From Bellilinea caldifistulae (GTDB taxonomy: Bacteria > Chloroflexota > Anaerolineae > Anaerolineales > Anaerolineaceae), in the NCBI RefSeq assembly GCF_001306055.1, contig NZ_LGHJ01000019.1:60001-92000 (forward strand): a stretch of 32,000 bases of DNA, written 5' to 3'. This document shows positions 7,220-31,517 of the stretch, one piece after another. The notes beneath the pieces are model-generated. The model saw only the letters and a program-made list of their open reading frames with translations, was not told the origin of the DNA and did not search any database. Each line of letters starts with the position of its first letter. The stretch's first letter is position 1. A program made the position numbers and the translations under genes.

Positions 7220-7364
7220 CGTGATTCCGCCCTCATGTTTTGTCTGGTTGCCTTTTATTATACCGTTTCCCGCACGGGAATGAATTTACAATTTTATCGA
7301 GAAACCCCAAACTGCTGGTAAAATAGCGCATCCGCTTTACTTTGAAACTGGAACGGATGAAATC

Positions 7365-9002: not shown

Positions 9003-9179
9003 CCAAAATTTTCCTCCAAAAGGTTGGGTTTTTAATAGAATTAACGCATAATAATACGTCAGTCCCGATTCTTTTTTCCCGTAGTTTTTGCCAAAGGAGG
9101 TGATTACCGCAGACAAATTTCTGCACCTGTTTGTTGTTGCACCTGTTTCATTTTTCAAAAAAACCAAGGAGGAGTAGTG

Positions 9180-10910
9180 ATGAAAGCCAACAAATTTTTT
9201 TTGGTTTTGGCGGTTTTGATGGTTGCCAGCCTGGTTCTGGCTGCCTGTCAGCCGGCTGCCACGCCGACCCCCCAGCAGCCACCTGCTCAGCAACCAACCA
9301 CCCCGCCAGAACAACCCCCGGCTGAACAGCCAACCACACCCCCGCAGGCAGGTTTTGAACCAATGGTCTACGGGGTAGAGACCTGCGATAATTACAACGG
9401 CATCATCAAGGAAATCGCCGCTCTGGACGAACTTACTGTTCGCTTCACCCTGTGTGTGCCAGACCCAGCCTTTGAATCCAAAGCAGCATTTTCGGCCTTC
9501 GCCATTCAGCCCAAAGAATGGATTGAAGCGGCCATGGCCAATAAGCAAATTCTGGAAAAACCCATCGGCACTGGCCCGTATGTACTGGATTCGTGGAAAC
9601 GCGGTGACAGCATCATCTTCAAACGTTTTGATGATTACTGGGGCGAGAAAGCCAAAACCCAAACCCTGGTTTTCCGCTGGGCATCCGAAGGCGCCGCCCG
9701 CCTGTTGGAACTGCAATCCGGTACGGTTGACGGAATTGACAACCCCAGCCCAGACGACTTCGAGGTCATCCGGAGTGACCCCAACCTGCAATTGATTGAA
9801 CGCGAAGCCCTCAATATCTTCTATCTGGGCATGACCAACACCTTTGAGCCTTTCGATAAACTGGAAGTCCGTCAGGCAATTGCCATGGGGATTGACCGCC
9901 AGCGCATCGTGGATAACTTCTACCCGGCCGGTTCATCGGTTGCCTCACACTTCACCCCCTGCTCCATTCCAAACGGCTGCGTTGGTGAAGACTGGTACGA
10001 ATTTAATCCGGAAAAGGCTCGCGAATTGCTTGCTAAGGCCGGCTTCCCCAATGGCTTCCAGACCAAAATCTACTACCGGGATGTGTTCCGCGGTTACCTG
10101 CCCGAACCCGGTCTGGTTGCAACTGACATTCAGGCTCAGTTGAAACAAAACCTCAACATTGATGCTGAAATTGTTGTGATGGAAAGCGGTGCATTCATTG
10201 ATGAATCAACCAGCGGCCGTTTGAACGGCTTTTATCTGCTGGGTTGGGGCGCTGACTACCCGCACATTACCAACTTCCTCGACTTCCACTTCGGCCGCGC
10301 CAATCCTCAATTTGGGAAGCCATTCCCCGAAATCTATGAACTGCTCGAACAGGGTGCCCGCATTGCGGATCCTGAGGAAGCAACTCCCATCTATGAGCAG
10401 GCCAACAACAAGATCAAAGAACTGGTGCCGATGGTGCCGATTGCTCACGGCGGTTCTGGCGTAGCCTATCGTGCCGACGTGGTTGGCGGACACGCCAGCC
10501 CGCTGGGCAACGAGTACTTCGCCGTTATGGATCCGGGCGGTCGCTCAACCTTCGTCTGGATGCAGAACGCCGAACCCATTTCCCTGTACTGCGGCGATGA
10601 AACCGATGGCGAAAGCCTGCGCGCCTGCGAACAGGTCCTCGAATCGCTGCTCGCCTACGAAGTCGGTGGTACGCAGGTGAAACCGGCATTGGCAACAGAA
10701 TGCACTCCCAATAATGACCTCACGGAGTACACTTGCAAATTGCGCCCGAATGTGAAGTTCCATGACGGTTCAGCTTTCGATGCCAACGATGTGGTCATGT
10801 CATGGGTAGTTGCCTGGGATTACAAACACCCGCTCCACATTGGTAACACTGGTGCTTTCGAGTACTTCAGTTACCTGTGGGGATTGATGAATGCCCCGGC
10901 AGAAGAGTAA
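9180..10910 (+). CDS. ABC transporter substrate-binding lipoprotein, family 5 (peptide/nickel, DppA/OppA-like)
   Basis: AAGGAGG 7 nt before the ATG at 9180 (the track starts 3 nt earlier at a GTG). Lipobox LVLAAC followed by a Pro/Gln/Thr-rich linker. Family-5 SBP length and motifs. First gene of a 5-gene importer operon. Confidence 0.9.
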   Translation: MKANKFFLVLAVLMVASLVLAACQPAATPTPQQPPAQQPTTPPEQPPAEQPTTPPQAGFEPMVYGVETCDNYNGIIKEIAALDELTVRFTLCVPDPAFESKAAFSAFAIQPKEWIEAAMANKQILEKPIGTGPYVLDSWKRGDSIIFKRFDDYWGEKAKTQTLVFRWASEGAARLLELQSGTVDGIDNPSPDDFEVIRSDPNLQLIEREALNIFYLGMTNTFEPFDKLEVRQAIAMGIDRQRIVDNFYPAGSSVASHFTPCSIPNGCVGEDWYEFNPEKARELLAKAGFPNGFQTKIYYRDVFRGYLPEPGLVATDIQAQLKQNLNIDAEIVVMESGAFIDESTSGRLNGFYLLGWGADYPHITNFLDFHFGRANPQFGKPFPEIYELLEQGARIADPEEATPIYEQANNKIKELVPMVPIAHGGSGVAYRADVVGGHASPLGNEYFAVMDPGGRSTFVWMQNAEPISLYCGDETDGESLRACEQVLESLLAYEVGGTQVKPALATECTPNNDLTEYTCKLRPNVKFHDGSAFDANDVVMSWVVAWDYKHPLHIGNTGAFEYFSYLWGLMNAPAEE

Positions 10911-10953
10911 TCTTTGCCTCCTATGGCATAATCATGTGAGATGAGTTAACCCA

Positions 10954-11023
10954 CGCGCGGGGTAGACGGTTCTCCTGAAATGAGCATCGCCTGTCCCGCG
11001 CGAATCTTGTTTTCCACAAGATT
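10954..11023 (+). terminator. Two intercistronic stem-loops after the binding-protein gene (partial terminator / mRNA stabiliser)
   Basis: CGCGCGGG (10954-10961) pairs with CCCGCGCG (10995-11002). AATCTTGT (11003-11010) pairs with ACAAGATT (11016-11023) and is followed by a T-rich tract. Confidence 0.4.
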
Positions 11024-11054
11024 TCTTATTCTCTATCATATGTAAGGGAATCCA

Positions 11055-12134
11055 ATGATCGCTTACACAATTCGCCGCTTGTTACTGGCAATTCCGGTCA
11101 TGTTCGGGATTCTGGTGGTTACTTTTACGCTTTCCCGCATGATCCCAGGCGATCCATGTAAAGCCATGCTGGGAGAAAAAGCCACCGCCGAAGTCTGTGA
11201 TCGTTTTCGTGCCCAATATGGCTTGGATAAGCCGATCCCGGTCCAGTTGGGAATTTACATGGGAAATGTACTCAAAGGTGATTTCGGCATGTCTATCCGC
11301 TTTAGTCGTCCGGTCACCATTATCCTCATCGAGCGGCTGCCAACCACCATTGAATTAGGGCTGACTTCGCTGATGATTGCCGTGCTGGTGGGAATACCGG
11401 CAGGTATCCTCTCTGCTGTTAAACGCAATTCGATCATTGATGTCATCACCATGGTTGGAGCCAACATTGGCGTTTCCATGCCGGTTTACTGGCTGGGATT
11501 GATTCTGGCCTATGTTTTTGCATTGCTGTTAAAGGACACACCTTTCTGGTTACCACCCACCGGCAGATTATCAGCCGGCCTTGTCAGTGTTCCCTTCTAT
11601 CAGGTTTTGGGATGGGAATTTCCAAAAGAATCCTTCCGCTATCATCTGGTTGAGTTTATCAGTAATCTCTACATTCTCAATTCTCTGCTTACCAGAGACT
11701 GGGTGGTATTGAAAGATGCCATCCAGCATTTGATCCTTCCTTCGGTCGCCCTGAGCACCATTCCATTGGCAATCATCGCCCGTATGACTCGTTCCTCCAT
11801 GCTGGAAGTGCTCAAGCAGGATTACATCCGCGCCGCCCGTGCCAAAGGTCTTTTGCGAGGAACGGTGATTTTCAAACATGCTTTTCGCAATGCCCTCTTG
11901 CCAATTGTAACTATCATAGGCATTCAGGTAGGCACGCTGTTTGCCGGGGCGGTTCTGACCGAAACCATCTTTGGCTTGGCAGGGGTCGGTCGGATTCTCT
12001 TTGAAGCCATCACCGCCCGGGATTTTCCCATCATTCAGGCATTTACGGTGGTCATCGCAGCCGGTTATGTCATTGCCAATTTGATCGTGGATTTGTCCTA
12101 CGTGCTGATTGATCCCCGCATTCGTCTCGAATAA
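11055..12134 (+). CDS. ABC transporter permease (DppB/OppB-like)
   Basis: 359 aa, N-terminal MIAYTIRRLLLAIPVMFGI... pattern typical of BPD_transp_1 peptide permeases. Operon context. Confidence 0.9.
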   Translation: MIAYTIRRLLLAIPVMFGILVVTFTLSRMIPGDPCKAMLGEKATAEVCDRFRAQYGLDKPIPVQLGIYMGNVLKGDFGMSIRFSRPVTIILIERLPTTIELGLTSLMIAVLVGIPAGILSAVKRNSIIDVITMVGANIGVSMPVYWLGLILAYVFALLLKDTPFWLPPTGRLSAGLVSVPFYQVLGWEFPKESFRYHLVEFISNLYILNSLLTRDWVVLKDAIQHLILPSVALSTIPLAIIARMTRSSMLEVLKQDYIRAARAKGLLRGTVIFKHAFRNALLPIVTIIGIQVGTLFAGAVLTETIFGLAGVGRILFEAITARDFPIIQAFTVVIAAGYVIANLIVDLSYVLIDPRIRLE

Positions 12135-12154
12135 CTTGATGTTTAGGTAGAAAA

Positions 12155-13093
12155 ATGGTAACCGATTTGAAAGCAAATCAGATTAAACAAAAAGATTACC
12201 GCTCCAATAGTTTATGGCGGCTGACTTTGCGGCGCATCTTCCGTCAGCGTTCGGCCATTTTTGGCATGGCTCTCCTCGGTTTTTTGATTTTTATCGCAAT
12301 TTTTGCCGAAGTCATTGCCCCATATGACCCCATTCAACCCTTGATCGGTATTGAAAACGTCAGTAAACGCGAAGCACCCTGCATTCACCTGTTTGGCTGC
12401 CCCAAAGATCGCCCCCAACACATCATGGGAATTGACGGTAATGTTCGTGATCAATTCAGCCGGGTACTTTACGGTTCGCGATACTCGCTCTATGTGGGCT
12501 TTACTACGGTTTCGTTTGCAATTCTGGTCGGCACGCTCCTGGGAGCCATTTCTGGCTACTTTGGAGGCTGGTGGGATAACATCATCATGCGCTTGATGGA
12601 TGTGTTAATGGCATTTCCTTCCCTGCTGCTGGCGATCACCATTGTTTCAGTACTTGGTCCCGGCTTAGAAAATGCACTCTTAGCCATTGCCATCGTGGCG
12701 ATCCCAGTCTATGCGCGGGTGGTACGCGCCAGTGTGTTATCTGTTAAGGAACAAGCTTATGTTGCAGCCTCGCTTGCGTTAGGTGGAAGCCATTTTCACA
12801 TCCTGCTTCGCCGTATTCTACCCAATGCCATTCCACCACTGATTGTACAGGGTACATTGGGAATCGGCACCGCCATTCTGGATGCAGCGGCTCTTTCCTT
12901 CCTCGGATTGGGCGCTCAGCCCCCTACCCCCGAATGGGGTACCATGCTCGGCACGGAGCGCAATCAGGTGTTTACGGCTCCTCATCTGGTTTTCTTTCCC
13001 GGTGCTGCAATCATGATCACCGTGCTGGCATTCAACCTCTTGGGTGATGGACTTCGGGATGCCATTGACCCACGCTTAACCCACCAAAAATAA
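12155..13093 (+). CDS. ABC transporter permease (DppC/OppC-like)
   Basis: 312 aa. Conserved EAA-like loop region (ASLALGGSHFHILLRRILPN). Operon context. Confidence 0.9.
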   Translation: MVTDLKANQIKQKDYRSNSLWRLTLRRIFRQRSAIFGMALLGFLIFIAIFAEVIAPYDPIQPLIGIENVSKREAPCIHLFGCPKDRPQHIMGIDGNVRDQFSRVLYGSRYSLYVGFTTVSFAILVGTLLGAISGYFGGWWDNIIMRLMDVLMAFPSLLLAITIVSVLGPGLENALLAIAIVAIPVYARVVRASVLSVKEQAYVAASLALGGSHFHILLRRILPNAIPPLIVQGTLGIGTAILDAAALSFLGLGAQPPTPEWGTMLGTERNQVFTAPHLVFFPGAAIMITVLAFNLLGDGLRDAIDPRLTHQK

Positions 13094-13112
13094 CAGGCAG
13101 GAAGAACTGATC

Positions 13113-14138
13113 ATGACTTATCAAAATACACCGCCACTCCTGCAAGTCCAAAATCTGAAAACTTATTATTTCACGGATGACGGGGTTGTAAAAGCCGTTG
13201 ATGGGGTGGACTTTGAAGTCTATCCCGGCGAGGTATTAGGTTTGGTGGGCGAATCTGGCTGCGGAAAGAGTGTCACCTCCCTTTCCATCATGGGTCTGAT
13301 TGAGCCACCCGGTAAAATCATGGATGGAAAAATTATCTTCGATGGTAAAAATCTGCTGGAAATGCCCGAGAAGGAAATGGCACAGGTGCGCGGTAAGAAC
13401 ATCTCCATGATCTTTCAGCAGCCACAAACCAGCCTCAACCCCGTGTTTACCATCGGTGAGCAAATCAGCGAGATTTTGAAAATCCACAGCACGTTAAGCA
13501 AACAAGAGCTTCAACGACGCACGCTGGAATTGTTGCAAATGGTGGGAATTCCCGATGCGCACCGAAAAATCAATGCCTATCCCCATGAAATGTCCGGCGG
13601 GCAGGCTCAGCGGGTGATGATTGCCATGGCGTTAGCGCTAAATCCGCAATTGTTGATTGCTGATGAACCCACCACTGCCCTGGATGTCACCATTCAAGCC
13701 CAAATCCTGGACTTGATGCGGGAACTCCGCAACCGCACCGGTACAGCCGTGATTTTGATCACCCACGACCTGGGGGTGATTGCAGAGATGGCCGACCGCG
13801 TAGCGGTGATGTATGCAGGAAGAATTGTCGAACAAGCCGATGTGAATACCTTATTCAGCACACCCCGTAACCCTTACACACAGGGTTTGATCGAATCTGT
13901 CCCCGTCCTCGGACAGATCAAAGAAGAGCTAGCCACCATTCCCGGAAATGTCCCCAATCTTGTGGATTTACCACCCGGCTGCCGCTTTGCTCCACGTTGC
14001 ACCGCCCGCGAAGCATATGGACTGGAGATCTGCAATCAAATTGAGCCGGATTTACAATCTGTGGAAAAAGCAGACCATTTCGTCCGCTGCTGGTTGTATC
14101 AGGACGGGAATGGCCACAACGCACCGCTCAAACGATAG
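13113..14138 (+). CDS. ABC transporter ATP-binding protein (DppD/OppD-like)
   Basis: Walker A GESGCGKS, signature SGGQAQR, Walker B LLIADEPTTALD, C-terminal oligopeptide-type Cys-containing extension. Confidence 0.9.
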   Translation: MTYQNTPPLLQVQNLKTYYFTDDGVVKAVDGVDFEVYPGEVLGLVGESGCGKSVTSLSIMGLIEPPGKIMDGKIIFDGKNLLEMPEKEMAQVRGKNISMIFQQPQTSLNPVFTIGEQISEILKIHSTLSKQELQRRTLELLQMVGIPDAHRKINAYPHEMSGGQAQRVMIAMALALNPQLLIADEPTTALDVTIQAQILDLMRELRNRTGTAVILITHDLGVIAEMADRVAVMYAGRIVEQADVNTLFSTPRNPYTQGLIESVPVLGQIKEELATIPGNVPNLVDLPPGCRFAPRCTAREAYGLEICNQIEPDLQSVEKADHFVRCWLYQDGNGHNAPLKR

Positions 14139-14156
14139 GGTTAGAAAGGGAAATGG

Positions 14157-15173
14157 ATGAACACACAGGTTAAAAAGTCTCCAGCCTCGTCTGAAGATCT
14201 GGTCGTCGTCAAGAATTTGGTCAAGTATTACCCGGTTTATGGCGGTATCCTGAAGCGCGTGGTGGCACATGTGAAGGCTGTGGATGGAGTCAGTTTCACC
14301 ATTCGCAAGGGTGAAACACTCGGTCTGGTAGGTGAATCGGGTTGCGGAAAGACCACCGTTGGGCATACCATGCTTGGGCTGATCAAGGCTACCAGCGGCC
14401 ATGTCTATTTTGATGGGATTGATCTGCTCAAGTTGAAAGGAAGCGCACTCAAAGAAATGCGCCGAAACATTCAAATTGTCTTTCAGGATCCCTACTCTTC
14501 ACTGGACCCTCGCCTGCCAATCGGTGAATCGATTGTAGAAGGTTTGAAAATCCACAATATTGGCACAGAACAGGAACGTTTCGAGCGGGTTCTTGCGGTT
14601 TTGAAAAAGGTCGGGTTGGAAGACTATCATGCCATGCGTTATCCGCATGAATTTTCTGGCGGTCAGCGGCAGCGCATTGGGATTGCGCGCGCCCTTATCC
14701 TTCAACCCAAATTTATTGTGCTGGATGAACCTGTTTCCGCTCTGGATGTTTCCATTCAGGCACAGGTACTCAATATTTTACGCAATTTACAACGCGAATT
14801 TGGTCTGACCTACTTATTCGTAGCCCATAATCTGGCAGTGGTAGAGCATATTTCTGATCGGGTTGCGGTCATGTATTTGGGAAAAATTGTCGAACTGGCC
14901 GATCGTGAAGCGCTTTTCCGCTTACCCACTCATCCGTATACCCAGGCCTTGATGTCGGCAATTCCCATCCCAGACCCGCGTGTTCGCCGCAAACGGATGA
15001 TCCTTCCCGGCGATGTTCCCAGCCCGTTGAACCCTCCCAGAGGCTGCCGCTTTCACCCCCGCTGTCCCTTTGCGCGTCCGAATTGTTCCCAGGAAGAACC
15101 GCCCCTACGAGAAATCCAGCCCGATCACTTTGTGGCCTGTCATTATGCGGAGGAGTTCATTCAGCCCGCCTGA
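14157..15173 (+). CDS. ABC transporter ATP-binding protein (DppF/OppF-like)
   Basis: Walker [10 protein letters not shown], signature SGGQRQR, Walker [14 protein letters not shown]-terminal [12 protein letters not shown] motif. Confidence 0.9.
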
Positions 15174-15248
15174 ATTGGATTGGTCAACCGACGTCTAACC
15201 CCCAATCATCCCCCCGTGGACACCCCGTGAAAGGCAATGTTGTAAAAA

Positions 15249-15660
15249 GGGGGGCTGATGGGGGTCGAACCCATCTCATCCCCTTCCGGGGACTACCACC
15301 TGAAAAATGATTTCTTAAAAAAAAGGGGTGGCTGATGGGGGTCGAACCCATCTCATCCCCTTCCGGGGACTACCACCTGAAAAATGATTTCTTAAAAAAA
15401 GGGGTGGCTGATGGGGGCCAACCCATCTCATCCCCTTCCGGGGACTACCACCTGAAAAATGATTTCTTAAAAAAGGGGTGGCTGATGGGGGCCAACCCAT
15501 CTCATCCCCTTCCGGGGACTACCACCTGAAAAATGATTTCTTAAAAAAGGGGTGGCTGATGGGGGCCAACCCATCTCATCCCCTTCCGGGGACTACCACC
15601 TGAAAAATGATTTCTTAAAAAAAGGGGTGGCTGATGGGGGTCGAACCCACAACCACCTGA
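15249..15660 (-). repeat. Tandem array of tRNA 3'-fragment units (five full 74-76 bp units plus a partial terminal copy)
   Basis: Units start at 15249, 15325, 15401, 15475, 15549 and 15624. On the minus strand each reads ...CAGGTGG TAG TCCCC-GGAA-GGGGA TGAG ATGGG-TTCGACC-CCCAT CAGCCAC C CC, that is variable arm + T arm + acceptor 3' strand, followed by an A/T-rich ~25 nt tail. Units 3-5 carry a variant (GGCCAACCC) that damages the T loop. No matching acceptor 5' strand (GTGGCTG) is present anywhere in the array. Confidence 0.9.
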
Positions 15661-15667: not shown

Positions 15668-16519
15668 TCAATCTAATCCTACGAGTCGCGGTATTGGCAA
15701 ATATGGTTTTATGTCATCTATCGTCAGTCCGCGGGTGTAACGTTCTACCATTTCGATTGATGACCAGCGTCCTGCTATTTGTACGATCCGTGATGGTGCG
15801 CCGTTGCGTGTTGTCATAATAGCAAACGTGCGCCTCAAATCGTGGGGAGATAATTTAGACAATCCAGCATTTTTGGCCCAGCCTCGAACAATGACTTTTA
15901 GCCCATCCCTGGTAAGTTTGTTGCCTGGTGTGTTGCCACCAACAGAACAGAAGACATAACGAAATGATTTAGATACGATCCGTTTGCGTTCAGCAAGCCA
16001 GGCGATAAGAACCTGTCTCGTATAGTCCGAAAATGTTGCATTACCCCACTTGCCGCCCTTAATGATCACGGATAGATGGCAGGCATCAAGGTCGAGATAT
16101 TTAATTTCTAGATTGCAAACTTCTGAACAGCGCAGGCCTGTATCCAGCAGTACGCAGAATATCGCCAAATCTCGTTTTCCCTTCGGCGTGGCTGTGTTGA
16201 ATGATTCAAGTATTTTGACAACACTGTCATCGCCCAAAAAACGTTGCGGTGCTGTATCCCTGCGCTTGATTTTCAAATTCAATGCAGGATGACTATCACC
16301 ACATCGCCAGCGCAAATAAGACCGTATGGCACAGTACGCAACCCAGCGATGGTTATCTCCCCAATCGTTGTGTTTGTATAGCCAGTATCGTAGTTGCTCT
16401 GGCGTTAGTCTCAACAAATCGCCAATTTCGCGTTCGGCAAGACCAAGTAGTCGCCTATACGACTCAATAGTACATTGAGAATATGCCTTGGAGTTTAGAA
16501 AATCGGTAATGTCTGACAT
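15668..16519 (-). CDS. int: Tyrosine recombinase / phage-type integrase
   Basis: Catalytic pattern present: R in TGLRCSE, KGGKWG, HDLRRTF, GRWSS, ERY. Preferred start is the ATG at 16519, 7 nt after GGAGG (the track extends to a TTG at 16549). The stop lies 8 nt from the last tRNA-fragment copy. Confidence 0.9.
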   Translation of the reverse strand: MSDITDFLNSKAYSQCTIESYRRLLGLAEREIGDLLRLTPEQLRYWLYKHNDWGDNHRWVAYCAIRSYLRWRCGDSHPALNLKIKRRDTAPQRFLGDDSVVKILESFNTATPKGKRDLAIFCVLLDTGLRCSEVCNLEIKYLDLDACHLSVIIKGGKWGNATFSDYTRQVLIAWLAERKRIVSKSFRYVFCSVGGNTPGNKLTRDGLKVIVRGWAKNAGLSKLSPHDLRRTFAIMTTRNGAPSRIVQIAGRWSSIEMVERYTRGLTIDDIKPYLPIPRLVGLD

Positions 16520-16578
16520 GGCGCAACCTCCGAGGTGCGCATTGTGCAAGTTACATACCGAAAAACAACCGATATTGT

Positions 16579-16785: not shown

Positions 16786-16976
16786 TGGACCCAACCCCAA
16801 CCCCGCTGCCAACTCCCATGTGGATGACGGATATTCAATTGGCTGATACCGTCCAATTTCACATGGAACGATCAATTACCTATGGGCAGATGGCGGTTAT
16901 ATCCGCCATTATGCTTTTGCTCGTTATTGTCATCATCGTGGCGCTGTTGATTGTGGTCAAGGAGTGGTTGCAATGA
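16785..16976 (+). CDS. Small membrane protein, 63 aa (Pro/Thr-rich N-terminus, C-terminal TM helix)
   Basis: ORF track. C-terminal MAVISAIMLLLVIVIIVALLIVV helix. ATGA overlap with the next gene. Confidence 0.6.
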   Translation: MDPTPTPLPTPMWMTDIQLADTVQFHMERSITYGQMAVISAIMLLLVIVIIVALLIVVKEWLQ

Positions 16977-17650
16977 GGAAATTTTCAATAACAACTCTAT
17001 TGTTGTTGCTATTGGTTACTCCCAACAACGTTGTTCATGCCGCTGTACCAACAGGATACATTGAAACCATTAGTGATTGTACTGGCGTTATTACTGGGTT
17101 TGCATGGGACCCGGATTATTCAATTGGTGGTGTAGTTGTTTATGCCATGCTAAATGAAACAACAACGCCTTCTACATTAACGGCAATTGCTTATACAGTG
17201 TCCAGGTCGTCAGACAAATATTTTGAGCTAACGATTCCTTCTAAATATCGCAACGGCACAACTATATATATTCGGGTTCAGGATGTCAACAGTAAAAACA
17301 CACCGACTGGTATATACACTACGATAGGAACGCTTTACATGAATTGCGTTACAAATACGCCAACTAAAACTAGAACCCCAACAGCAACGCCAACTAAAAC
17401 CGCAACTATTACACCTACGGCGACATTCACTAATACGGCAACTCTTACAGTTACACCAACGGAAACCAGTACGGCAACTCCAACGATCACTCTAACACCA
17501 ACACCAAAAGCCACCATTCCAATACCAACATTCACGCCCGTGTTTGAGATTGCTATTGCCACAGATACGACCTTTGTAGTTTACGGCATTGTGGGATCGG
17601 GAGACGTGGCAGCCGCCAGTTTTTTTTGCTCGCGGCACTCGTACTATTGA
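16973..17650 (+). CDS. Exported protein with a ~100-aa globular domain and a long Thr/Pro-rich linker (225 aa)
   Basis: AAGGAG 9 nt before the ATG at 16973. Signal peptide MRKFSITTLLLLLLVTPNNVVHA. TP-rich segment encoded at 17351-17539. Short hydrophobic C-terminus. Confidence 0.75.
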   Translation: MRKFSITTLLLLLLVTPNNVVHAAVPTGYIETISDCTGVITGFAWDPDYSIGGVVVYAMLNETTTPSTLTAIAYTVSRSSDKYFELTIPSKYRNGTTIYIRVQDVNSKNTPTGIYTTIGTLYMNCVTNTPTKTRTPTATPTKTATITPTATFTNTATLTVTPTETSTATPTITLTPTPKATIPIPTFTPVFEIAIATDTTFVVYGIVGSGDVAAASFFCSRHSYY

Positions 17651-18237: not shown

Positions 18238-18276
18238 CCTCATGGGGGCTGCCTCAGGTGGGTAGCCCCCATGAGG
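18238..18276 (+). promoter_or_regulatory. Perfect 13-bp stem / 13-nt loop hairpin between the 52-aa gene and the 954-aa gene
   Basis: CCTCATGGGGGCT (18238-18250) pairs with AGCCCCCATGAGG (18264-18276). No T-tract follows. The SD of the next gene (AGGAGG, 18283-18288) starts 6 nt after the stem. CCACCT (18235-18240) can alternatively pair with AGGTGG in the loop (18256-18261). Confidence 0.6.
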
Positions 18277-18293
18277 CCATTCAGGAGGTTTGT

Positions 18294-21158
18294 ATGAAAA
18301 GGTTACTTGTACTTGCTGGTTTTATAGCGATGTTTCTAGCCCTAATGCTAATTGCATCAGCGGCCAATGATGTTTACGCTCAAACACCAACGCCAACCAC
18401 AACACCAACAGACCCAAACGCAACGCCTCATTACTACTTGATTGAACAAGATTTTGACCTGACATTTACACAAAATACAAACGATTATCCACTTCCAAAA
18501 GCAATGACGTGCGGTCTAGATGAAATGCGCGCCGCATCATTTACCGCTCTTTATCACTCAAATTCAGTTAGTGACCCCGCTGGTGGGAATATTATTTTCA
18601 GTATAAATAAATCAGGTACTGGATATACTGATTGGCCAGTTGTTTATGAATGGTATACTCCAAGCAATACTAACAATGTGACTATCCAGGTAAATGCGTG
18701 TGGCGGTAGGGGAGATGGAACGAATTTAACTTATTGCGAACAACTCAGGCAATTAAAGGGTAGTATTGAAGCATGGAATATAGTCACTAAGAATCTCAAT
18801 AATGAGGGAATTTCCAGAATACAAAGTGTATTTGCATGGAAGCAGAATGCAGGATGGTATGTAAAATTATTGAATGTTTCGCTATTATGTTACGGTACAA
18901 ATGAGCCATTGCCTAAAACGGAATTGAATTGTTGGGATTATTTTGAGATTGGCCAGCAAGTAGCCACTGATACCGTAAAGCCGTATAACGATGAGACATT
19001 ACCGCCTATCCTTTGGGAAGGTGAAAATGGCAAGGCAATGCCTGGCATAGAAGGTGGTAAATGGTATGCCGTAGAGGTAACAGACCCTTATTGGATGGAT
19101 GGAACAGGTGAAACGCAATGGTATCCGTCATACAAGGCCGAAATGTCGCCGTTCTGGTCGCTTGCAGGGGCGGTTGAATGGTACGAATTATCCCAATACC
19201 CTAATGGTTGTTGGCAGCCGTTAGGCGATTATGGCAAAGGTCGCTTATTTTTCTATGCCGATGAGCAGATCTCGGATTATCTGCATGGTATCAGGGCCTA
19301 CAACGAATATGGCGATTATTTTGATAACCTCGGCCTCATGCACTACAAGGTTAATGAGGCAGTATACAATCCACCACCAGCGGCCTGCGAGGCTAATTTT
19401 GATATTGGGGAGTTTGTGAATACAATACGTGTCCCTGCATGGTATTCAGATGGATTACCTGTATTTGCCTATTCATCGCCAATTCCAAACACCACCTACG
19501 TGATTGATATATCCTCCGAGCCATGGTTTGACGAAGAAGGTAAACCTCAACACGGTGTGGATATATCCATTGATGGCGGTCAAACATGGGTGAACATTCG
19601 TGATATGAACGGCGAATGTGAGGCAGAGAAAGGGGTTGGCGGTTATAAGTACTATTTCAAATACGTTGCAGGGCGCAATTATCGAATACGGGCATCCGAT
19701 GGCAATGACCCGCTGGAATATCTTGGAAATAAGGGCTATGTAAAGTTTTCTGTTTACACAGCCACATCTTACAAGGCCGATGGTGCATGTTCTCAATCAT
19801 TCACACTCGGCAATGTGTTGAAAACCGGCAGTATACCGGCCAATCTCAGCGGGGGAGATCGCATCCAATACAACCTCACCCCTAACAACTGGTATGCCAT
19901 TGAGATTGTGCCTCCGCCGTGGTCAAATGCCGGTGTAGAGAGCAAAGAAGCGGATATATCCGGCGGTGATTCCGGCTGGCAAACCTTTTATCCGTTGGCC
20001 GACTTTCCGGGTGTCGCTTGTGCAGAAGAAAATGACGGCTATAAAAGGATTTATTTCCGCGCTCAATATTCTCAATACTTGCTTCGCGCCCATGAGGATG
20101 TTTTGCAATACGAGGATAATTCGGGGAGCGTAAACTATAAATTGTATGGGGTTGAGGTGTCAGCCTCAAATCCGCCGCCGGGTTCTTGCGAATCGGCGTA
20201 TAACACAAATCGCATTGTGGTCAGTTTGCCAATTTTGTATGCCAATCTCGAAAATGGCATTGAATTGAAATTAGCACCTGGTAAATACATGCTTGAAACC
20301 ATGGAAGGCCCTTGGCTGAACGAGGCCACGCCATCTTATGATGTTGAAATTACCAGCGGCGGCCTATTGGGTACGTATGTGCCAATAAACAGCCAGGGGG
20401 TATCTGACCCATTAGAGTGTGTTGTGCCGTTATCAGATGGATTACATTACCGTGCTTATTTTTCGGTTGAGGCAGGAAAATATTACAGGGTTAGGGTACA
20501 TGACCCGGAGGGTACTTTTGCCACGAATACTGGTCAGATGGTGATAGCCATATATCGTGTATCTGACATTAACGAACCACCCCCCGATCCAGCGGATTAC
20601 ACCGTGAACGGGTGTAATTCGATATGCTTGCGTCCAGATTCAATTCTCGATGTGCCAGAATGGATTGAATACAATCGGTGTGCGTTCAGCAAATGGATTA
20701 GTTTTTGCCCATATCATGCTGAATCGCTTATGTCTGTCCTTGTTGAATTTAATAACCGTGAGCCGTTTGGTACACTTCTGCAATTCACCTCATTACCTCA
20801 GAAAATTCAGGAGGAATTTAACCAGTACAGATGGGCAGACGCTCAGGGTGGCGATGGGGCAGAAGTTTTAGGTGGTGGTGTGCAACCTTGGGAAATACTG
20901 GCACAATTGCCAAGCAGCAGCCCATTCAACAATGGCCGAATAGATATTGTGAAGCCAATGACGCCATTTTCAACATTCTGCCAAAGCGAAATGACCAAAG
21001 CCGTTGGGGCTAAATTATCTGCGCCAATGTGTTTTGCTCTAAATGTCCTGAATGGACTGGGAGTAAATAAATGGATAAATACTATTTTCAACCTGGTTCT
21101 GGCTGGCGTCTTTTTTATGTATATCTACAACGCATGGATAAAGCAATTTGGAAACTAA
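18294..21158 (+). CDS. Large exported, C-terminally membrane-anchored protein (954 aa) built from four tandem ~135-150 aa repeats
   Basis: AGGAGG 5 nt before the ATG at 18294 (the track begins at 18258). Signal peptide MKRLLVLAGFIAMFLALMLIASAANDVYA, then a TP-rich stretch. Four internal repeats encoded at 18930-20615. C-terminal TM INTIFNLVLAGVFFMYIYNAW. Confidence 0.85.
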   Translation: MKRLLVLAGFIAMFLALMLIASAANDVYAQTPTPTTTPTDPNATPHYYLIEQDFDLTFTQNTNDYPLPKAMTCGLDEMRAASFTALYHSNSVSDPAGGNIIFSINKSGTGYTDWPVVYEWYTPSNTNNVTIQVNACGGRGDGTNLTYCEQLRQLKGSIEAWNIVTKNLNNEGISRIQSVFAWKQNAGWYVKLLNVSLLCYGTNEPLPKTELNCWDYFEIGQQVATDTVKPYNDETLPPILWEGENGKAMPGIEGGKWYAVEVTDPYWMDGTGETQWYPSYKAEMSPFWSLAGAVEWYELSQYPNGCWQPLGDYGKGRLFFYADEQISDYLHGIRAYNEYGDYFDNLGLMHYKVNEAVYNPPPAACEANFDIGEFVNTIRVPAWYSDGLPVFAYSSPIPNTTYVIDISSEPWFDEEGKPQHGVDISIDGGQTWVNIRDMNGECEAEKGVGGYKYYFKYVAGRNYRIRASDGNDPLEYLGNKGYVKFSVYTATSYKADGACSQSFTLGNVLKTGSIPANLSGGDRIQYNLTPNNWYAIEIVPPPWSNAGVESKEADISGGDSGWQTFYPLADFPGVACAEENDGYKRIYFRAQYSQYLLRAHEDVLQYEDNSGSVNYKLYGVEVSASNPPPGSCESAYNTNRIVVSLPILYANLENGIELKLAPGKYMLETMEGPWLNEATPSYDVEITSGGLLGTYVPINSQGVSDPLECVVPLSDGLHYRAYFSVEAGKYYRVRVHDPEGTFATNTGQMVIAIYRVSDINEPPPDPADYTVNGCNSICLRPDSILDVPEWIEYNRCAFSKWISFCPYHAESLMSVLVEFNNREPFGTLLQFTSLPQKIQEEFNQYRWADAQGGDGAEVLGGGVQPWEILAQLPSSSPFNNGRIDIVKPMTPFSTFCQSEMTKAVGAKLSAPMCFALNVLNGLGVNKWINTIFNLVLAGVFFMYIYNAWIKQFGN

Positions 21159-22384
21159 TTGCATTGCTTATCCTGCTATCAATGCCGGTGCATAGGGTAG
21201 TAGCGGATGGTATTCCCTATGCTCGGCACACTGTTACAGTGCCTCTATTTATCGAGGACATTGTAACTAGTGTTCTGCTTGCCAATCCGGTTGATGGGGC
21301 AGAGTATTACGCTGTTACGGATATAACCACCCACGGCTCTGTGTATGTGGTATCGGTTGCAGCCATAAAGGGGTGCGATCCTCAAAACTGGAATCTGGAT
21401 TGTGCCATCAAGTTATTTACGATAGCCACAGATGGCACATTCAGCGGATTAGAAGGTTCACCAGAATATGCAAGCCTTACCAGTGCATTTATGAATGATT
21501 ATGAGCAATATAAGCCTGGCACGCTCAATGATGGCACGGTAGGGGGAGACGATGGCGATTACTCTAATTCAACCTTGCCGGTTTTACCATTCAAGCCTGG
21601 AACAAAGGTTGTGATTGGCTCTCGTGGGATACATGACGCAGGATTTTCTTTAACCGGATGGAAAGCGATTGACCTGGTGAGCGGTACGGACATTGGCTCA
21701 GGAGCTGCGCCCAATGAGGTTTATGCCAGTGCCGATAGCGAAATCACTTACGTTTGCCGTGATGATCACAGCGTGGCCGTGCGTGCTGGCAATTTTCTTT
21801 ATGCCCATTTACAGGACAACGCCAACCTCACGGTTGGTTATAACCTGAGCCGTGGCGTCAAATTTGCCTCGATGGTGGTTGGCAGTTTTACGGACACTTG
21901 CGGATGGGCTAACCAGCAACCTAATCATTATCATTTGCATTTTGGCGTTCCAGGTGTTACATCAGTACAATTCGCCGGTTGGACACTACGACCTTTTGAG
22001 GGTGGTTTTGTAAATGGTAATACTTGGGTGAGAGCCGGTGATTATCTCTACAACCCCGGTTTGACTGGTGGTGATAATTCAGCCGGTGACCCAGCGGAGC
22101 AAATCAAACAGGGTAACTCATTTTGGGATGGCATAGTATCAGCCATGATCAATGTGATCAGGGATGGAATACTGGAACGCTTCCCTGAACGGTCAGAAAC
22201 AAATTATCAGGATGTTTATATCAACGCTAGTAGCGTTGTTTTACGTGTGTTTTTCATCATGCTATCAACTTCATTCGATTTATCGTTTTTTGCATTTTTT
22301 ATGATAGCAATGTTTATCCTAGAACCAGCACGAGTAATTTACAAACTCTATATGAGCATAAAGAAAGCCATCCCGTTTGTGTGA
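21071..22384 (+). CDS. Membrane-anchored M23/LytM-like peptidase domain protein
   Basis: KAIDLVSG...VYASADSEITYV and NHYHLHFG (HxH motif) resemble the M23 fold. The first HxxxD metal motif is not obvious. Signal/anchor KLIALLILLSMPVHRVVADG and two C-terminal TM helices. Alternative start at 21134. Overlaps the end of the upstream gene. Confidence 0.75.
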   Translation: MDKYYFQPGSGWRLFYVYLQRMDKAIWKLIALLILLSMPVHRVVADGIPYARHTVTVPLFIEDIVTSVLLANPVDGAEYYAVTDITTHGSVYVVSVAAIKGCDPQNWNLDCAIKLFTIATDGTFSGLEGSPEYASLTSAFMNDYEQYKPGTLNDGTVGGDDGDYSNSTLPVLPFKPGTKVVIGSRGIHDAGFSLTGWKAIDLVSGTDIGSGAAPNEVYASADSEITYVCRDDHSVAVRAGNFLYAHLQDNANLTVGYNLSRGVKFASMVVGSFTDTCGWANQQPNHYHLHFGVPGVTSVQFAGWTLRPFEGGFVNGNTWVRAGDYLYNPGLTGGDNSAGDPAEQIKQGNSFWDGIVSAMINVIRDGILERFPERSETNYQDVYINASSVVLRVFFIMLSTSFDLSFFAFFMIAMFILEPARVIYKLYMSIKKAIPFV

Positions 22385-22391
22385 GGTGATT

Positions 22392-22976
22392 ATGTTTAGA
22401 CGCACTCATTTTGTAATGGCAGAACCAGGCATAAATCCCATGGAAATACCGGAAGATCGCAAGAGAAAACCGGTTAATCCACTATTGTTATTGTTTGGCG
22501 GTATGATTGCATTATCGTTGCTTTGCGGAGGTGTTATATTTGCCGTAACTGGCAATAAGCGCGCATCTGCCGCCGATAGTCAGACACCTACAATGACCAC
22601 AACCGCAACCCACACACCTACTCCAACAGCAACGCTAACCAGATATGCAAGCATAACCGCAACCTACCAACGGATTACGGCCACGGCCACGCAAACCAGT
22701 ACTCCAATGGCTACACAAACCCCTTGGGTACAGGAAGTAACCCGCATTGTGGCGGTAGATCGCCCCATTTATGTAGATCGTCCCGTTTACAGTACGGTTG
22801 TAGTGCCTATGCCAATTGTTGTTACAGTCATCCACACTCAGATTGTGGTGGTAACCGCAACACCAACATTCACGCCAACACCAACCGAAACGCCTACTCC
22901 AACGTTAGAAACAACCATAGCACCAACCGAAACACCAACTCTAACGCTGGAAATGACACAAACACCTGAAAATTAG
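22392..22976 (+). CDS. Single-pass membrane protein with two Thr/Pro-rich regions (194 aa)
   Basis: GAGGTGA immediately upstream of the ATG at 22392. TM LLLLFGGMIALSLLCGGVIFAV. TP-rich tracts flank a VDRPIYVDRPVY / valine-rich core. Confidence 0.7.
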   Translation: MFRRTHFVMAEPGINPMEIPEDRKRKPVNPLLLLFGGMIALSLLCGGVIFAVTGNKRASAADSQTPTMTTTATHTPTPTATLTRYASITATYQRITATATQTSTPMATQTPWVQEVTRIVAVDRPIYVDRPVYSTVVVPMPIVVTVIHTQIVVVTATPTFTPTPTETPTPTLETTIAPTETPTLTLEMTQTPEN

Positions 22977-27551: not shown

Positions 27552-27680
27552 TTAACCTCTGTCATTTTCTCTTCGTTCTTCAAGTTCGGCAATTTTTTCT
27601 TCCAATTCAGTAACTTTTCGCATTGCCGCAATTAACTCTTTTTCGAGTTGCTTTATTTGCTCATCAATTTCATCCATCAT
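27552..27680 (-). CDS. Possible 42-aa coiled-coil protein (below the ORF-track cutoff)
   Basis: MMDEIDEQIKQLEKELIAAMRKVTELEEKIAELEERRENDRG. Heptad-like. Its stop is 1 nt from the next start. Weak SD. Confidence 0.3.
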   Translation of the reverse strand: MMDEIDEQIKQLEKELIAAMRKVTELEEKIAELEERRENDRG

Positions 27681-27757
27681 TTTCGTTTTTTCATGTCCTT
27701 TCTAAAACTTTGCCGGTTACGCTATCCGGCTTGCCGTCACCTCACGTATTCCGCAGG

Positions 27758-27777
27758 GTTGAGTTTAGTTGAGTTTA
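27758..27777. repeat. Perfect tandem 10-mer GTTGAGTTTA x2 upstream of the minus-strand operon
   Basis: 27758-27767 and 27768-27777 are identical. They lie between the tRNA-like gene and the first ORF of the operon. A 6-2-6 palindrome ACGCCA-TT-TGGCGT lies at 27808-27821. Confidence 0.5.
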
Positions 27778-27827
27778 TCGGCAACGCCTAACCCGTTATG
27801 ACAACTAACGCCATTTGGCGTATATGA

Positions 27828-27934
27828 TGGCGGGCTGGGATTTGAACCCAGTGTGCTGGTCTGGTCTGCGGTCCCACCAGCAGGAAGCCCGCAGTTAGCA
27901 ACTCTCCCGCGTGTTCCCACCACGCCGCCCGCCA
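27828..27934 (-). tRNA. Atypical 107-nt tRNA-like gene (anticodon-loop GCU, bulged anticodon stem, 29-nt variable arm)
   Basis: Every nucleotide fits a cloverleaf. Acceptor TGGCGGG/CCCGCCA. D arm GCGTG-GTGGGAA-CACGC. Anticodon arm GGGAGAG / CT[GCGGG]CTTCC closing the loop TTGCTAA. Variable arm TGCTGGT-15 nt-ACCAGCA. T arm CTGGG-TTCAAAT-CCCAG. No CCA is encoded. Confidence 0.55.
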
Positions 27935-27956
27935 GTGTTTACGTTTAGTTAAGGTT

Positions 27957-28472
27957 CTAATTTCTCTCTTCTGGCTTTATCCAGCCTATACCACAAAGAT
28001 TAAAAAAGTCGTTTTCTTCTGGGGTATGAAGCGTCTCCCCGTTCTCGACATGATGAATCGCTCCATCTCTCACAACATAAGCAGACGGTAGAAAACCGCC
28101 GTACCGCTTCGGAGTAACTAGTTTTTTTGAAAACTCTGCACCCCCAGTGCGGAGCGCAAAGATTACGCCCCATTCGGCAGGTGGTAAAACGATGAACAAG
28201 TCCAAATTAATCCCTTCTGGTAATATATACTGCTTGTAACGTTCTCCGTTCTTAATCGCTGGGGCTGGTAAAGAGAGATTAAAATAACCGTTTGGGTTTC
28301 CGAAAAGGTCTCTGACCATCAATGGTATTGCCACAATCTCTATATCCCCTACTTCTGACTTTCTCCGCCTGATACTCCCAGCAATCTCAATGCGTTTGCA
28401 GAACGGTGCAAGCATTTCTAAGTACTTACTGGCAGTCCTCTCGGCTAATTCGAGCGGGATTTTTGTTTTCAT
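27957..28472 (-). CDS. Minimal family-X (Pol beta-like) nucleotidyltransferase, palm + thumb only (171 aa)
   Basis: GSIRRRKSEVGDIEIVAI matches the PolX GS-x-RRG-x5-D-x-D-hh palm motif, with Glu at the second acidic position. INLDLFIV supplies the third acidic residue. FALRTGGAEFSKKL resembles the PolX thumb (TGS..FN..LR). Confidence 0.75.
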   Translation of the reverse strand: MKTKIPLELAERTASKYLEMLAPFCKRIEIAGSIRRRKSEVGDIEIVAIPLMVRDLFGNPNGYFNLSLPAPAIKNGERYKQYILPEGINLDLFIVLPPAEWGVIFALRTGGAEFSKKLVTPKRYGGFLPSAYVVRDGAIHHVENGETLHTPEENDFFNLCGIGWIKPEERN

Positions 28473-28874: not shown

Positions 28875-28956
28875 TAGAACAATTTTAGAACATTACATTA
28901 GAGTTTACAACAGATTGCTATATAGTATTGACAAATAGTACCGTATGCGGTACAAT
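28875..28956 (+). promoter_or_regulatory. Early promoter P1 with operator-like repeats (copy A of the duplicated cassette)
   Basis: TTGACA (28928-28933), 17 nt spacer, TACAAT (28951-28956). The palindrome GTACCG-TATG-CGGTAC fills the spacer. TAGAACA boxes at 28831, 28875 and 28886. 28875-28934 is identical to 29974-30033. Confidence 0.7.
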
Positions 28957-28984
28957 ATAATCAAGATCACGATAGGAGACACAA

Positions 28985-29878: not shown

Positions 29879-29888
29879 AAACTTGAAC

Positions 29889-29920
29889 AAAAAATCCCCG
29901 CCAGTGAGGCGGGGATTTTT
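29889..29920 (+). terminator. Rho-independent terminator (copy A of the duplicated 67-bp cassette 29889-29955)
   Basis: AAAAA ATCCCCGCC (29894-29902), loop AGTGA, GGCGGGGAT (29908-29916), TTTTT. Confidence 0.8.
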
Positions 29921-29973
29921 GACATATTCTTCAAACCGCTGATATTCCACCAATTTTTTAATGCATCTTCAAA

Positions 29974-30055
29974 TAGAACAATTTTAGAACATTACATTAG
30001 AGTTTACAACAGATTGCTATATAGTATTGACAATTGCTATATAGTATGCTATACT
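29974..30055 (+). promoter_or_regulatory. Early promoter P2 with operator-like repeats (copy B of the duplicated cassette)
   Basis: TTGACA (30027-30032), 17 nt spacer, TATACT (30050-30055). ATTGCTATATAGTAT is repeated at 30013-30027 and 30033-30047 and contains the palindrome CTATATAG. TAGAACA boxes at 29974 and 29985. Confidence 0.7.
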
Positions 30056-30084
30056 ATAAGCAAGATAACGAAAGGAGCGATGAG

Positions 30085-31127: not shown

Positions 31128-31447
31128 AAACGCCTAACCTGTCCGTTCATCTCAATAACCTGAGTGCCGTGCGCGAAACCGCACGGCGTTTGGGGTTTAC
31201 ATTGTCCCGCGGCCATCGCGCCGGTGACGGCAGTATCCAGCAAATGCTGGAAGCCATTGCTGCTGGCGAGGTGCTTGTCCTCTGCCACGTCTACGACTGG
31301 CCGGAGGACATGCGCCGCGATGCCGCCTACCTGCGCGGCCTGGCCGCCCGCATTGAGCGAGATGACAACGCTCTTGCGGCAGCGGAAACGCTGCGCGGGC
31401 TAGCCGCTGCGATGGAAGCGGCGGCAGACCTGAAAAGTTTTGAATAA
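31124..31447 (+). CDS. Hypothetical Ala/Arg-rich helical protein (107 aa)
   Basis: ATGA overlap with the upstream gene. Locally GC-rich, so several shadow ORFs overlap it. Confidence 0.65.
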   Translation: MKTPNLSVHLNNLSAVRETARRLGFTLSRGHRAGDGSIQQMLEAIAAGEVLVLCHVYDWPEDMRRDAAYLRGLAARIERDDNALAAAETLRGLAAAMEAAADLKSFE

Positions 31448-31477
31448 AAAATCCCCGCCTCACCGGCGGGGATTTTT
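31446..31477. terminator. Bidirectional rho-independent terminator (copy B of the duplicated 67-bp cassette 31446-31512)
   Basis: AAAAA ATCCCCGCC (31451-31459), loop TCACC, GGCGGGGAT (31465-31473), TTTTT. Sits between convergent genes. Confidence 0.8.
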
Positions 31478-31517
31478 GACATATTCTTCAAACCGCTGAT
31501 ATTCCGCCAATTCATCG

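Follow-up and report, generated by a model that had tools for sequence, protein, structure and literature searches.

Allo-tRNAs and other irregular transfer RNAs (tRNAs) resemble tRNA-Sec or tRNA-Ser, have long variable arms, and are carried by phages and mobile elements or located near toxin-antitoxin loci (PMC5389517). Many irregular tRNAs are inactive in translation assays, some contain five-stem junctions or extra loops, and one "E-loop" tRNA has both U73 and a GCU anticodon (PMC5389517). The extra loop of irregular tRNAs lies between the acceptor and D stems, and the anticodon stem of some tRNA-Pyl has unpaired bases or small loops (PMC7609411). Phage tRNAs were also reported to counter tRNA-targeting defences by evading anticodon nucleases (PMC10264068), and other phage tRNAs are reported to neutralise PARIS or retron effectors (PMC11464382, PMC11555353). 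Here we analysed a 32,000-nucleotide (nt) stretch of the genome of Bellilinea caldifistulae (NCBI RefSeq assembly GCF_001306055.1, contig NZ_LGHJ01000019.1, positions 60,001 to 92,000; hereafter the window), in which an integrated mobile element carries a tRNA-Ser(GCU)-like RNA of 107 nt on the minus strand (27828-27934). The RNA is an unusual architecture, conserved by compensatory substitutions, within the known non-canonical tRNAs and tRNA-like RNAs of mobile elements. In the open-access literature searched, we found no description of a tRNA whose anticodon-stem bulge pairs with the variable loop. The other contigs compared with the window are designated L001, L162 and so on.

All 107 nt of the RNA form a cloverleaf on the minus strand, to which all coordinates of its parts refer. 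RNA position i corresponds to window position 27935 - i, so that U1 is at 27934 and A107 at 27828; sequence and coordinates were exact when checked against the window. The 5' strand of the acceptor helix, UGGCGGG (27928-27934), pairs with the 3' strand CCCGCCA (27828-27834), giving 7 base pairs (bp) in the window and in L001, two of the acceptor pairs being compensatory. The next bases are UCAU, with no encoded CCA, and the base after the helix is U in the window, C in L001, and U in L162, not G73, or A if the register is shifted by one. Position 8 is C. The D arm (27909-27925) has a 5-bp stem, GCGUG/CACGC, and an invariant loop, GUGGGAA, that contains GG. C11 is replaced by U in L001, which makes a G-U pair, and a 1-nt deletion in L162 leaves a shorter stem of 3-4 bp. 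The D stem directly abuts the anticodon stem, without a position-26 spacer. The anticodon arm (27883-27908), itself supported by covariation, consists of a 5-bp distal stem, a 5-nt bulge, a 2-bp proximal stem, and a 7-nt loop, UUGCUAA (27895-27901), which includes U33, the anticodon GCU (27897-27899), and A37 and is invariant in all copies. Within the anticodon stem, A30-U49 is replaced by G-C in L162, and the wobble pair G29-U50 is invariant.

The bulge, GCGGG (27888-27892), is located on the 3' strand of the anticodon stem and provides the first strand of a pseudoknot, in which GCGG pairs with CCGC (27868-27871) in the loop of the variable arm. The variable arm (27854-27882) has a 7-bp stem, UGCUGGU/ACCAGCA, with one compensatory pair (G-C to C-G) in L162, and a 15-nt loop, of which the 3' half, AGACCAG, is invariant. 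The second pseudoknot strand can be extended to CCGCAG (27866-27871), which is complementary to CUGCGG (27889-27894); the strands in L162 are CCGGAG opposite CUCCGG. The T arm, CUGGG-UUCAAAU-CCCAG (27835-27851), has three compensatory pairs, its stem being CUGGG/CCCAG, UCAGG/CCUGA, or CCAGG/CCUGG depending on the sequence type, and its loop differs only at position 57 (A or G), a purine in tRNAs generally. The elbow signatures are thus present, namely GG in the D loop together with a T loop of the form UUCRAAU (UUCAAAU or UUCGAAU). Single-sequence minimum-free-energy folding gave a four-arm cloverleaf at -52.1 kcal/mol with z = -2.29, a modest value that is suggestive alone.

To identify homologs, we performed pattern scans of viral contigs and metagenomes, which returned only copies of the L001, L162, and window types. 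The L001 copy was found on an IMG/VR contig, and the more divergent L162 copy was found on a 62-kb viral contig with a loop-anchored degenerate pattern. Among the metagenome copies, L164 and L169 are of the L001 type and L168 is of the window type. A covariance model built from the family (R1) scored the window copy at 134 bits. Covariation was tested on four distinct sequences (window, L001, L164, and L162), drawn from the only three independent sequence types known, with the pseudoknot included in the structure. All alignment cells (141/141, 100%) form standard pairs, and eight pairs changed on both sides, including two in the acceptor, one in the anticodon stem, one in the pseudoknot, one in the variable stem, and three in the T stem; the sole change in the D stem is of the G-U type, with no double change. 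When the 3' partners were slid by 1-3 columns as controls, 33-43% of the cells were paired and no compensatory change was observed. RNAalifold independently recovered the same four arms. Substitutions outside the helices were few, being confined to the last base of the bulge (G/A), one variable-loop base (G/U), one linker base, and T-loop position 57.

The pseudoknot is supported by one compensatory event, the replacement of G43-C67 by C-G in L162, and by 4-6 nt of complementarity. Minimum-free-energy folds and RNAalifold drew an inner helix, UUGC/GCGG, in place of the small proximal stem, and this helix was rejected owing to a C.C break in L162. The 2-bp proximal stem with its 7-nt loop and the pseudoknot was preferred because it stays intact in L162, where UUGC/GCGG breaks, and the substitution that breaks that helix is the very one compensated by the pseudoknot partner. 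The functional strand was assigned as the one co-oriented with the flanking genes, because, read from the opposite strand, the invariant G29-U50 pair and the C11-to-U change would each give an A.C mismatch. The acceptor/T branch is 7 + 5 bp in the window, L001, and L164, with covariation, and 9 + 5 bp in L162, where the closing helix (UGCCAGCGG/CCGCUGGCA) is of different sequence, fully paired, and 9 bp long instead of the 7 bp found elsewhere. This 9-bp helix is either a true difference in length or a leader-trailer pairing lost on maturation.

These comparisons show that the 107-nt stretch is evidently a genuine, selectively maintained RNA gene, apparently derived from a class II serine tRNA with the anticodon GCU. 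They also show the bulge and the enlarged variable loop as what appear to be two co-evolving insertions that pair with each other, a predicted pairing that would tether the variable arm alongside the anticodon stem. A first-pass annotation, made from the window's letters, had already drawn the 107-nt minus-strand cloverleaf with exactly these coordinates, and its GCU loop, bulged 7-bp anticodon stem, and oversized variable arm were borne out by the alignment and by RNAalifold. Its suggestion of a pseudoknot between the bulge and the variable loop was likewise strengthened by the change in L162. Its alternative drawing, an 8-bp acceptor with a 4-bp T stem, did not hold, as the outer T-stem pair covaries from C-G to U-A and C8 faces A100 in L001.

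Standard finders do not detect the RNA. ARAGORN at default settings called no tRNA or transfer-messenger RNA (tmRNA) anywhere in the window and gave no usable call when introns were allowed or tmRNAs were searched for; Rfam yielded zero matches at its gathering thresholds. A permissive Rfam search of the local 801 nt returned only sub-threshold matches, to mascRNA (16.9 bits, spanning the T arm and acceptor) and to tRNA-Sec, which was the best match of the Rfam tRNA clan and a weak one (14.6 bits against a threshold of 47, E = 8.3), and no tmRNA match at the target. With relaxed settings ARAGORN reported a "tRNA-Ser(gct) with a 12-nt intron", a call to which we gave no weight because the same setting gives about 68 calls in the window. 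ARAGORN, proposed as a check in the first-pass annotation, gave no usable call; the covariation test in homologs, proposed with it, supported every helix and the bulge-loop pairing.

In silico edits followed by default ARAGORN runs addressed the ancestry of the RNA. No call was made for the unedited RNA, nor when the bulge was removed, when the bulge and two stem pairs were removed, or when the variable loop was shortened alone. A tRNA-Ser(gct) was called only when the bulge was removed and the variable loop was shortened together, and the RNA therefore appears to be a class II tRNA-Ser(GCU) frame with two insertions. The best match of model R1 outside the family was a genuine tRNA-Ser (21.8 bits). 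Along with the restored ARAGORN call, this agrees with the serine-type identity proposed at first sight. GenBank phages, PLSDB plasmids, and Escherichia coli genomes contained no near or distant match; L163 and L165-L167 were judged unrelated on reading their sequences and had no R1 match, and L170 was discarded as a chance match.

As in bacterial class II tRNA-Ser(GCU), the RNA has a cloverleaf with a long base-paired variable arm, an invariant serine anticodon GCU in a 7-nt loop, a D loop with GG, a T loop of the form UUCRAAU, and, in the window, L001, and L164, a 7/5 branch. Unlike those tRNAs, it is 107 nt long, is missed by ARAGORN and Rfam, and has a bulged 7-bp anticodon stem, a 15-nt variable loop paired to that bulge, a 5-bp D stem without the position-26 spacer, and C8. 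Canonical tRNAs have an unbroken 5-bp anticodon stem, whereas every copy of the RNA has 5 + 2 bp with a 5-nt 3' bulge. The G73 discriminator, an identity element of bacterial seryl-tRNA synthetase (SerRS) (PMC7609411), is also lacking. Assignment to the allo-tRNAs, which the first-pass annotation had raised through the 8/4 fold, was not upheld, since the RNA has neither their defining 8/4 nor 9/3 branch, its 5-bp T stem covaries at the outer pair, and its D arm has a 5-bp stem and a 7-nt loop and not the Sec-like long stem with a tetraloop (definition in PMC5389517). The extra loop of irregular tRNAs differs in location from the bulge/variable-loop pseudoknot observed here. The longer anticodon and D stems are shared with tRNA-Sec and tRNA-Pyl, which have no bulge paired to the variable loop; the anticodon is GCU and not UCA or CUA, and the branch is 7/5 and not 8/5 or 9/4. 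An identity as tRNA-Sec was rejected on its 14.6 bits (RF01852, against 47), the GCU anticodon, and a 7/5 instead of a 13-bp branch. An identity as a one- or two-piece tmRNA was likewise rejected, as neither ARAGORN nor Rfam matched one at the RNA.

Two further groups are closer in setting or in part of the fold. The RNA shares with anti-defence phage tRNAs that it is a tRNA-type gene on phages and mobile elements without a codon-usage rationale. In mycobacteriophages, serine GCU serves as a non-targeted decoder (PMC10264068), and a T5 tRNA acting against PARIS and evasion of a retron have been reported (PMC11464382, PMC11555353). In those tRNAs the cloverleaf is canonical and the anticodon loop has point changes, whereas the RNA described here, known from its sequence, has a canonical loop and a re-engineered anticodon stem and variable arm. 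The tRNA mimics, such as the YrlA/Y-RNA domains, mascRNA, and viral 3' tRNA-like structures, resemble the RNA in the elbow and the acceptor/T minihelix, which accords with the weak mascRNA match. YrlA and the viral tRNA-like classes engage tRNA-processing enzymes by the elbow and minihelix, and pseudoknots occur in the viral ones. In contrast to these mimics, the RNA belongs to no Rfam family at threshold, retains full anticodon and variable arms, and is a stand-alone gene on DNA elements.

The carriers of the RNA are the integrated element of B. caldifistulae (DF967971.1) and the phage-like contigs L001 and L162, in agreement with the first-pass view that the RNA is borne by a mobile element. 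In the window, positions 1-15173 contain chromosome-type genes, and the integrated element extends from about 15.2 kb on. It encodes a tyrosine integrase, an FtsK/SpoIIIE translocase, a PMT_2-like membrane protein, a winged-helix regulator, and a Pol X-like nucleotidyltransferase, the rest being mostly orphan open reading frames (ORFs). L001, a genuine phage, carries terminase and portal genes, replication genes of the DnaD and DnaC types, and a Gp3-like recombination directionality factor, and its RNA is located between same-strand ORFs inside the replication module. The context in L162 is similar, with DUF932, PD-(D/E)XK nuclease, and Lin1244-like genes. In both contigs, 10-25 nt separate the RNA from the ORFs, and the orientation is always that of the flanking genes. 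At the DNA and protein levels, the only segment common to the window, L001, and L162 is about 100-117 nt long, that is, the RNA +/- 5 nt, and the homology of the window to L164 and L169 is confined to it as well. These results show the RNA as what appears to be a free-standing cargo that at least three unrelated mobile elements carry in their replication or early modules.

The upstream neighbour of the RNA in the window is a minimal Pol X-like nucleotidyltransferase of 171 amino acids (aa) (27957-28472, minus strand), recognised by Pfam DNA_pol_B_thumb and by matches to Pol X and Pol lambda structures in the PDB, whose stop codon is 22 nt from the RNA on the same strand. The downstream neighbour is a 42-aa ORF (27552-27680, minus strand), which, according to gene calls in L178, is the first of a module of 42-, 71-, and 139-aa ORFs, PMT_2, and FtsK. 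No promoter- or terminator-like site was found beside the RNA in the window. None of these neighbours is a likely partner. The RNA was absent from 160 Pol X loci in genomes and viral contigs searched by blastn, nhmmer, and the covariance model, and from the closest homologs, in which an SSB gene follows Pol X after 3 nt; Pol X was rejected as a partner on this absence. The downstream 139-aa/FtsK module was rejected as well, as its relatives L188 and L190 have no RNA and L191 has a mere remnant, and so was the gene upstream of the RNA in L162.

The Pol X-like ORF contains only palm and thumb, with the motif GSIRRR..GDIEIV in which D-I-E replaces the usual D-x-D, and it belongs to a family of more than 1,500 homologs of about 170-177 aa that are widespread in viral contigs across many phyla. 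In related Anaerolineae elements, canonical tRNA genes were observed beside Pol X (L003 2913-2985, L006 2901-2973, and L002 655-726), including a tRNA-Met located 15-27 nt upstream of Pol X as well as tRNAs for Lys, Arg, and Cys, none of which encodes CCA. Since ordinary tRNAs lie beside the same Pol X gene, this site appears to be a tRNA-cargo slot in which the absence of CCA is normal, and the missing CCA that the first-pass annotation had listed as an oddity is not one. A second, paralogous element in the same genome (L177; DF967971.1, 3.20 Mb) encodes an integrase, a helix-turn-helix regulator, a Pol X that is 74% identical, SSB, ParA, and a ribbon-helix-helix protein, and contains no copy of the RNA.

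A mosaic boundary lies directly downstream of the RNA. The metagenome contig L168 is 100% identical to the window over the RNA and the 3' part of Pol X (27806-28160) and 89.6% identical over the 8.8 kb downstream, and it also lacks 104 nt of the window (27702-27805). A hairpin-containing motif, ACGGCAAGCCGGAUAGCGUAACCGGCA (27711-27737, minus strand), is located directly upstream of the 42-aa ORF, is kept in L191 amid divergence and absent from L168, and may be a regulatory or leader element.

Comparisons with relatives of the carriers indicated rapid turnover. The RNA is absent from L188 and L190, both relatives of the downstream module. A remnant of about 54 nt is found in L191 (1913-1966), a related FtsK-type element, at the syntenic junction. 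It still has its acceptor strands, its D arm, and its T arm but neither an anticodon arm nor a variable arm, and it shows an extra A and a mismatch in the T stem. The remnant and the window have a common 3' junction, CCCGCCATCAT. Among relatives of the L162 phage, L192-194 have no RNA at the slot. In L195 (1816-1888), the slot is occupied by a 73-nt branched hairpin with an 11-bp closing stem followed by a U-run, and in L196 (2500-2662) by a 163-nt structure that shares its first 20 nt and its last 9 nt with the L162 RNA around an unrelated interior of about 130 nt, without a T loop or an anticodon loop. The L196 structure is identical in L197 and L198, and L199 has only the first part of it; neither the L195 nor the L196 structure matched Rfam, ARAGORN, or model R1. 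In the L162 group a U-run follows the closing helix; the U-run and the same or a similar long helix persist in L195 and L196 with the interior replaced, and the slot may be a fast-evolving structured-RNA locus. From these lost and remodelled states, we infer that the RNA is gained, lost, and remodelled quickly, and the intact form, where it occurs, evidently experiences selection on its structure.

Four metagenome contigs from different runs (L182, L184, L185, and L187) end exactly at RNA position 41, and L183 ends at position 21. From position 12 on, the window type (C11) does not differ from the L001 type (U11), and the last 31-mer that includes position 11 ends at position 41. Logan assemblies use k = 31. 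The ends at position 41 are therefore best explained as a de Bruijn branching artefact of C11 and U11 variants co-occurring in the samples, and an integration junction in the anticodon loop was rejected on the same ground. Such co-occurrence shows that the element and the phage apparently share communities. In the contigs L182-L185 and L187, the module of Pol X and the RNA is also seen on at least two additional backbones, which have upstream either ParA together with other genes or a DNA methylase.

Several other features of the element were observed. A tandem array of five full copies and one partial copy, with a period of about 74-77 nt (15243-15650), lies directly against the stop codon of the ORF for the tyrosine integrase (15668-16549, minus strand). 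Read on that strand, the unit is GGUGGUAG-UCCCCGGAAGGGGA-UGAG-AUGGGUUCGACCCCCAU-CAGCCACC-CC followed by a U-run and folds into a small three-way structure resembling a tRNA, composed of an acceptor stem, a hairpin, and a T arm (z = -2.7); its 3' part resembles the 3' end of a tRNA-His or a tmRNA. It gave a weak permuted-tmRNA match (19.2 bits), no intact tRNA was called near the array, and the array could represent either a series of small RNAs or stacked attachment-site (att) remnants. Small ORF clusters on the element's regulatory side are bracketed by two pairs of long direct repeats: one of 104 nt with 85% identity (28875-28978 and 29974-30077) and one of 73 nt with 90% identity (29883-29955 and 31440-31512), the latter containing a strong hairpin of the terminator type, AAAAATCCCCGCC....GGCGGGGATTTTT, with a loop that is inverted in one copy relative to the other. 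Degenerate 12-nt periodic repeats (ACNCCNACNNNNAC...) at 17350-17500, 18378-18415, and 22584-22945 lie within the ORFs 16964-17650, 18258-21158, and 22377-22976, respectively, where they would encode Thr/Pro-rich linkers, which suggests that these ORFs are putative secreted or surface proteins of the element.

On balance, we give a probability of roughly 0.5 to the reading that the RNA acts in trans as a non-decoding tRNA look-alike, and we rank this above a working decoder of AGY codons. The RNA would be co-transcribed with its neighbours and released by RNase P and 3' processing, after which CCA would be added as for the tRNAs of the host group; such tRNA-like maturation is plausible because the elbow and the acceptor/T minihelix read by those enzymes are intact. 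It would then act as a decoy or sponge, or as a clamp-protected stand-in, for a host or rival-element factor acting on anticodon arms of the tRNA-Ser(GCU) type or on class II tRNAs, tRNA-directed nucleases or toxins being candidates. With the clamp in place, the anticodon stem would be stiffer and partly buried, the loop still being presented. The 30S subunit packs closely around the anticodon stem, where the variable arm is tied. A look-alike is favoured by this 7-bp bulged stem, by the absence of G73, by the 14-bp acceptor/T stack in L162, and by sister loci that lack the anticodon and variable arms or have them replaced. AGY codons, in addition, are not enriched in the carriers (17-20 per 1000, against 21 per 1000 in host genes), and codon supplementation is thus not supported. 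Irregular tRNAs tied to mobile elements or toxin-antitoxin systems were inactive in translation assays (PMC5389517). Several points weigh against the look-alike. With three sequence types, the invariance of the loops is weak evidence and the pseudoknot depends on one compensatory event; fast loss in relatives indicates that the RNA is dispensable; PADLOC recognised no defence or toxin partner, nor any tRNA-directed toxin or defence gene, in the three contexts. A translating tRNA, too, would need the 12-bp acceptor/T branch conserved in the window and L001, the canonical loop (U33, A37), and the intact elbow, and the 9-bp helix of L162 could be a leader-trailer pairing trimmed to 7 bp.

These last features are those expected if the element supplied a working serine tRNA for AGY codons, with the clamp tolerated by the ribosome or opening at decoding, an explanation that we regard as possible but rather unlikely. 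The clamp would in that case give resistance to anticodon-arm nucleases or stability at the high growth temperature of the host. The long variable arm is the main SerRS determinant, two deletions yield a tRNA-Ser in default ARAGORN, and ordinary tRNAs occupy the same slot in related elements. tRNA-Ser(gct) is a nuclease-insensitive serine decoder in mycobacteriophages (PMC10264068), and engineered tRNAs are reported to tolerate hairpin tags (PMC7590224). A 7-bp stem with a bulge paired to the variable loop would nevertheless add bulk where, judging from ribosome structures, the 30S subunit is tight, and neither the lack of G73, the 9-bp acceptor helix of L162, the unenriched AGY codons, nor the loss of the anticodon arm at sister loci is expected of a decoder. 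The tight placement of the RNA between same-strand ORFs (22 nt after Pol X in the window, 10-25 nt in L001 and L162) would also fit a cis-acting element of a polycistronic transcript, such as an RNase P/RNase Z processing site, a stabiliser, or a terminator, whose released RNA had no role of its own. The U-run after the closing helix in the L162 group, which persists with that helix in L195 and L196, and the weak mascRNA-like match over the T arm and acceptor point in the same direction; we nonetheless find this improbable, as the acceptor/T minihelix and elbow would suffice for processing, the compensated anticodon stem, variable stem, and pseudoknot and the invariant loop would go unexplained, and no U-run is present in the window or L001.

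Origin as a relic is far less probable still. Rejection by tRNA finders, the tyrosine integrase with tRNA-fragment repeats at its end, the truncated remnant in L191, and the mosaic boundaries at the ends of the RNA might recall a host tRNA-Ser decaying after imprecise excision or the core of an attachment site. Every stem substitution is compensated across three unrelated carriers with no broken pairs, so the decay proposed in the first-pass annotation does not apply to this copy; that annotation is supported as to a tRNA-shaped RNA of serine type on a mobile element and not as to an 8/4 allo-tRNA, decay, or the missing CCA as an oddity. An att site of the integrase was rejected, since neither the window nor L001 contains a second or partial copy, a bona fide phage has the RNA within its replication module and far from any integrase, and the integrase-adjacent repeats have another T arm and another acceptor; the contig break shared at position 41 reflects k-mer branching of the C11 and U11 variants. 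Least probable of all is a fold that acts in the DNA itself, as an origin or single-strand initiation structure, which would draw on the replication modules present in all three carriers (Pol X, with SSB in relatives, and DnaD- or DnaC-like genes). Such a structure would hardly keep the tRNA-specific loop signatures (UUCRAAU, D-loop GG, U33, and A37) or an orientation that always matches the flanking genes, and the invariant G-U pair and the C-to-U change that makes another would be A.C on the other strand.

We advance more tentatively, and with less confidence than we give to a working decoder, the wider proposal that Chloroflexota mobile elements exchange a previously undescribed, pseudoknot-clamped serine-tRNA frame as a counter to tRNA-directed immunity or toxins; it would serve as a decoy or, with a clamp that opened on the ribosome, as an AGY decoder proof against cleavage. 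Three sequence types and rapid loss in relatives limit the likely breadth of its importance. Among the carriers is a sequenced genome from a named species, the cultured thermophile B. caldifistulae (DF967971.1), in which the RNA is directly testable. If expressed, the RNA would widen the range of natural tRNA-derived architectures to include a class II tRNA with an intramolecular pseudoknot between the anticodon stem and the variable loop, invisible to standard annotation. It bears on the limits within which the tRNA frame can be remodelled and still engage tRNA enzymes, which is relevant to the engineering of orthogonal and tagged tRNAs, and on why phages and mobile elements carry tRNA genes that codon usage does not explain.

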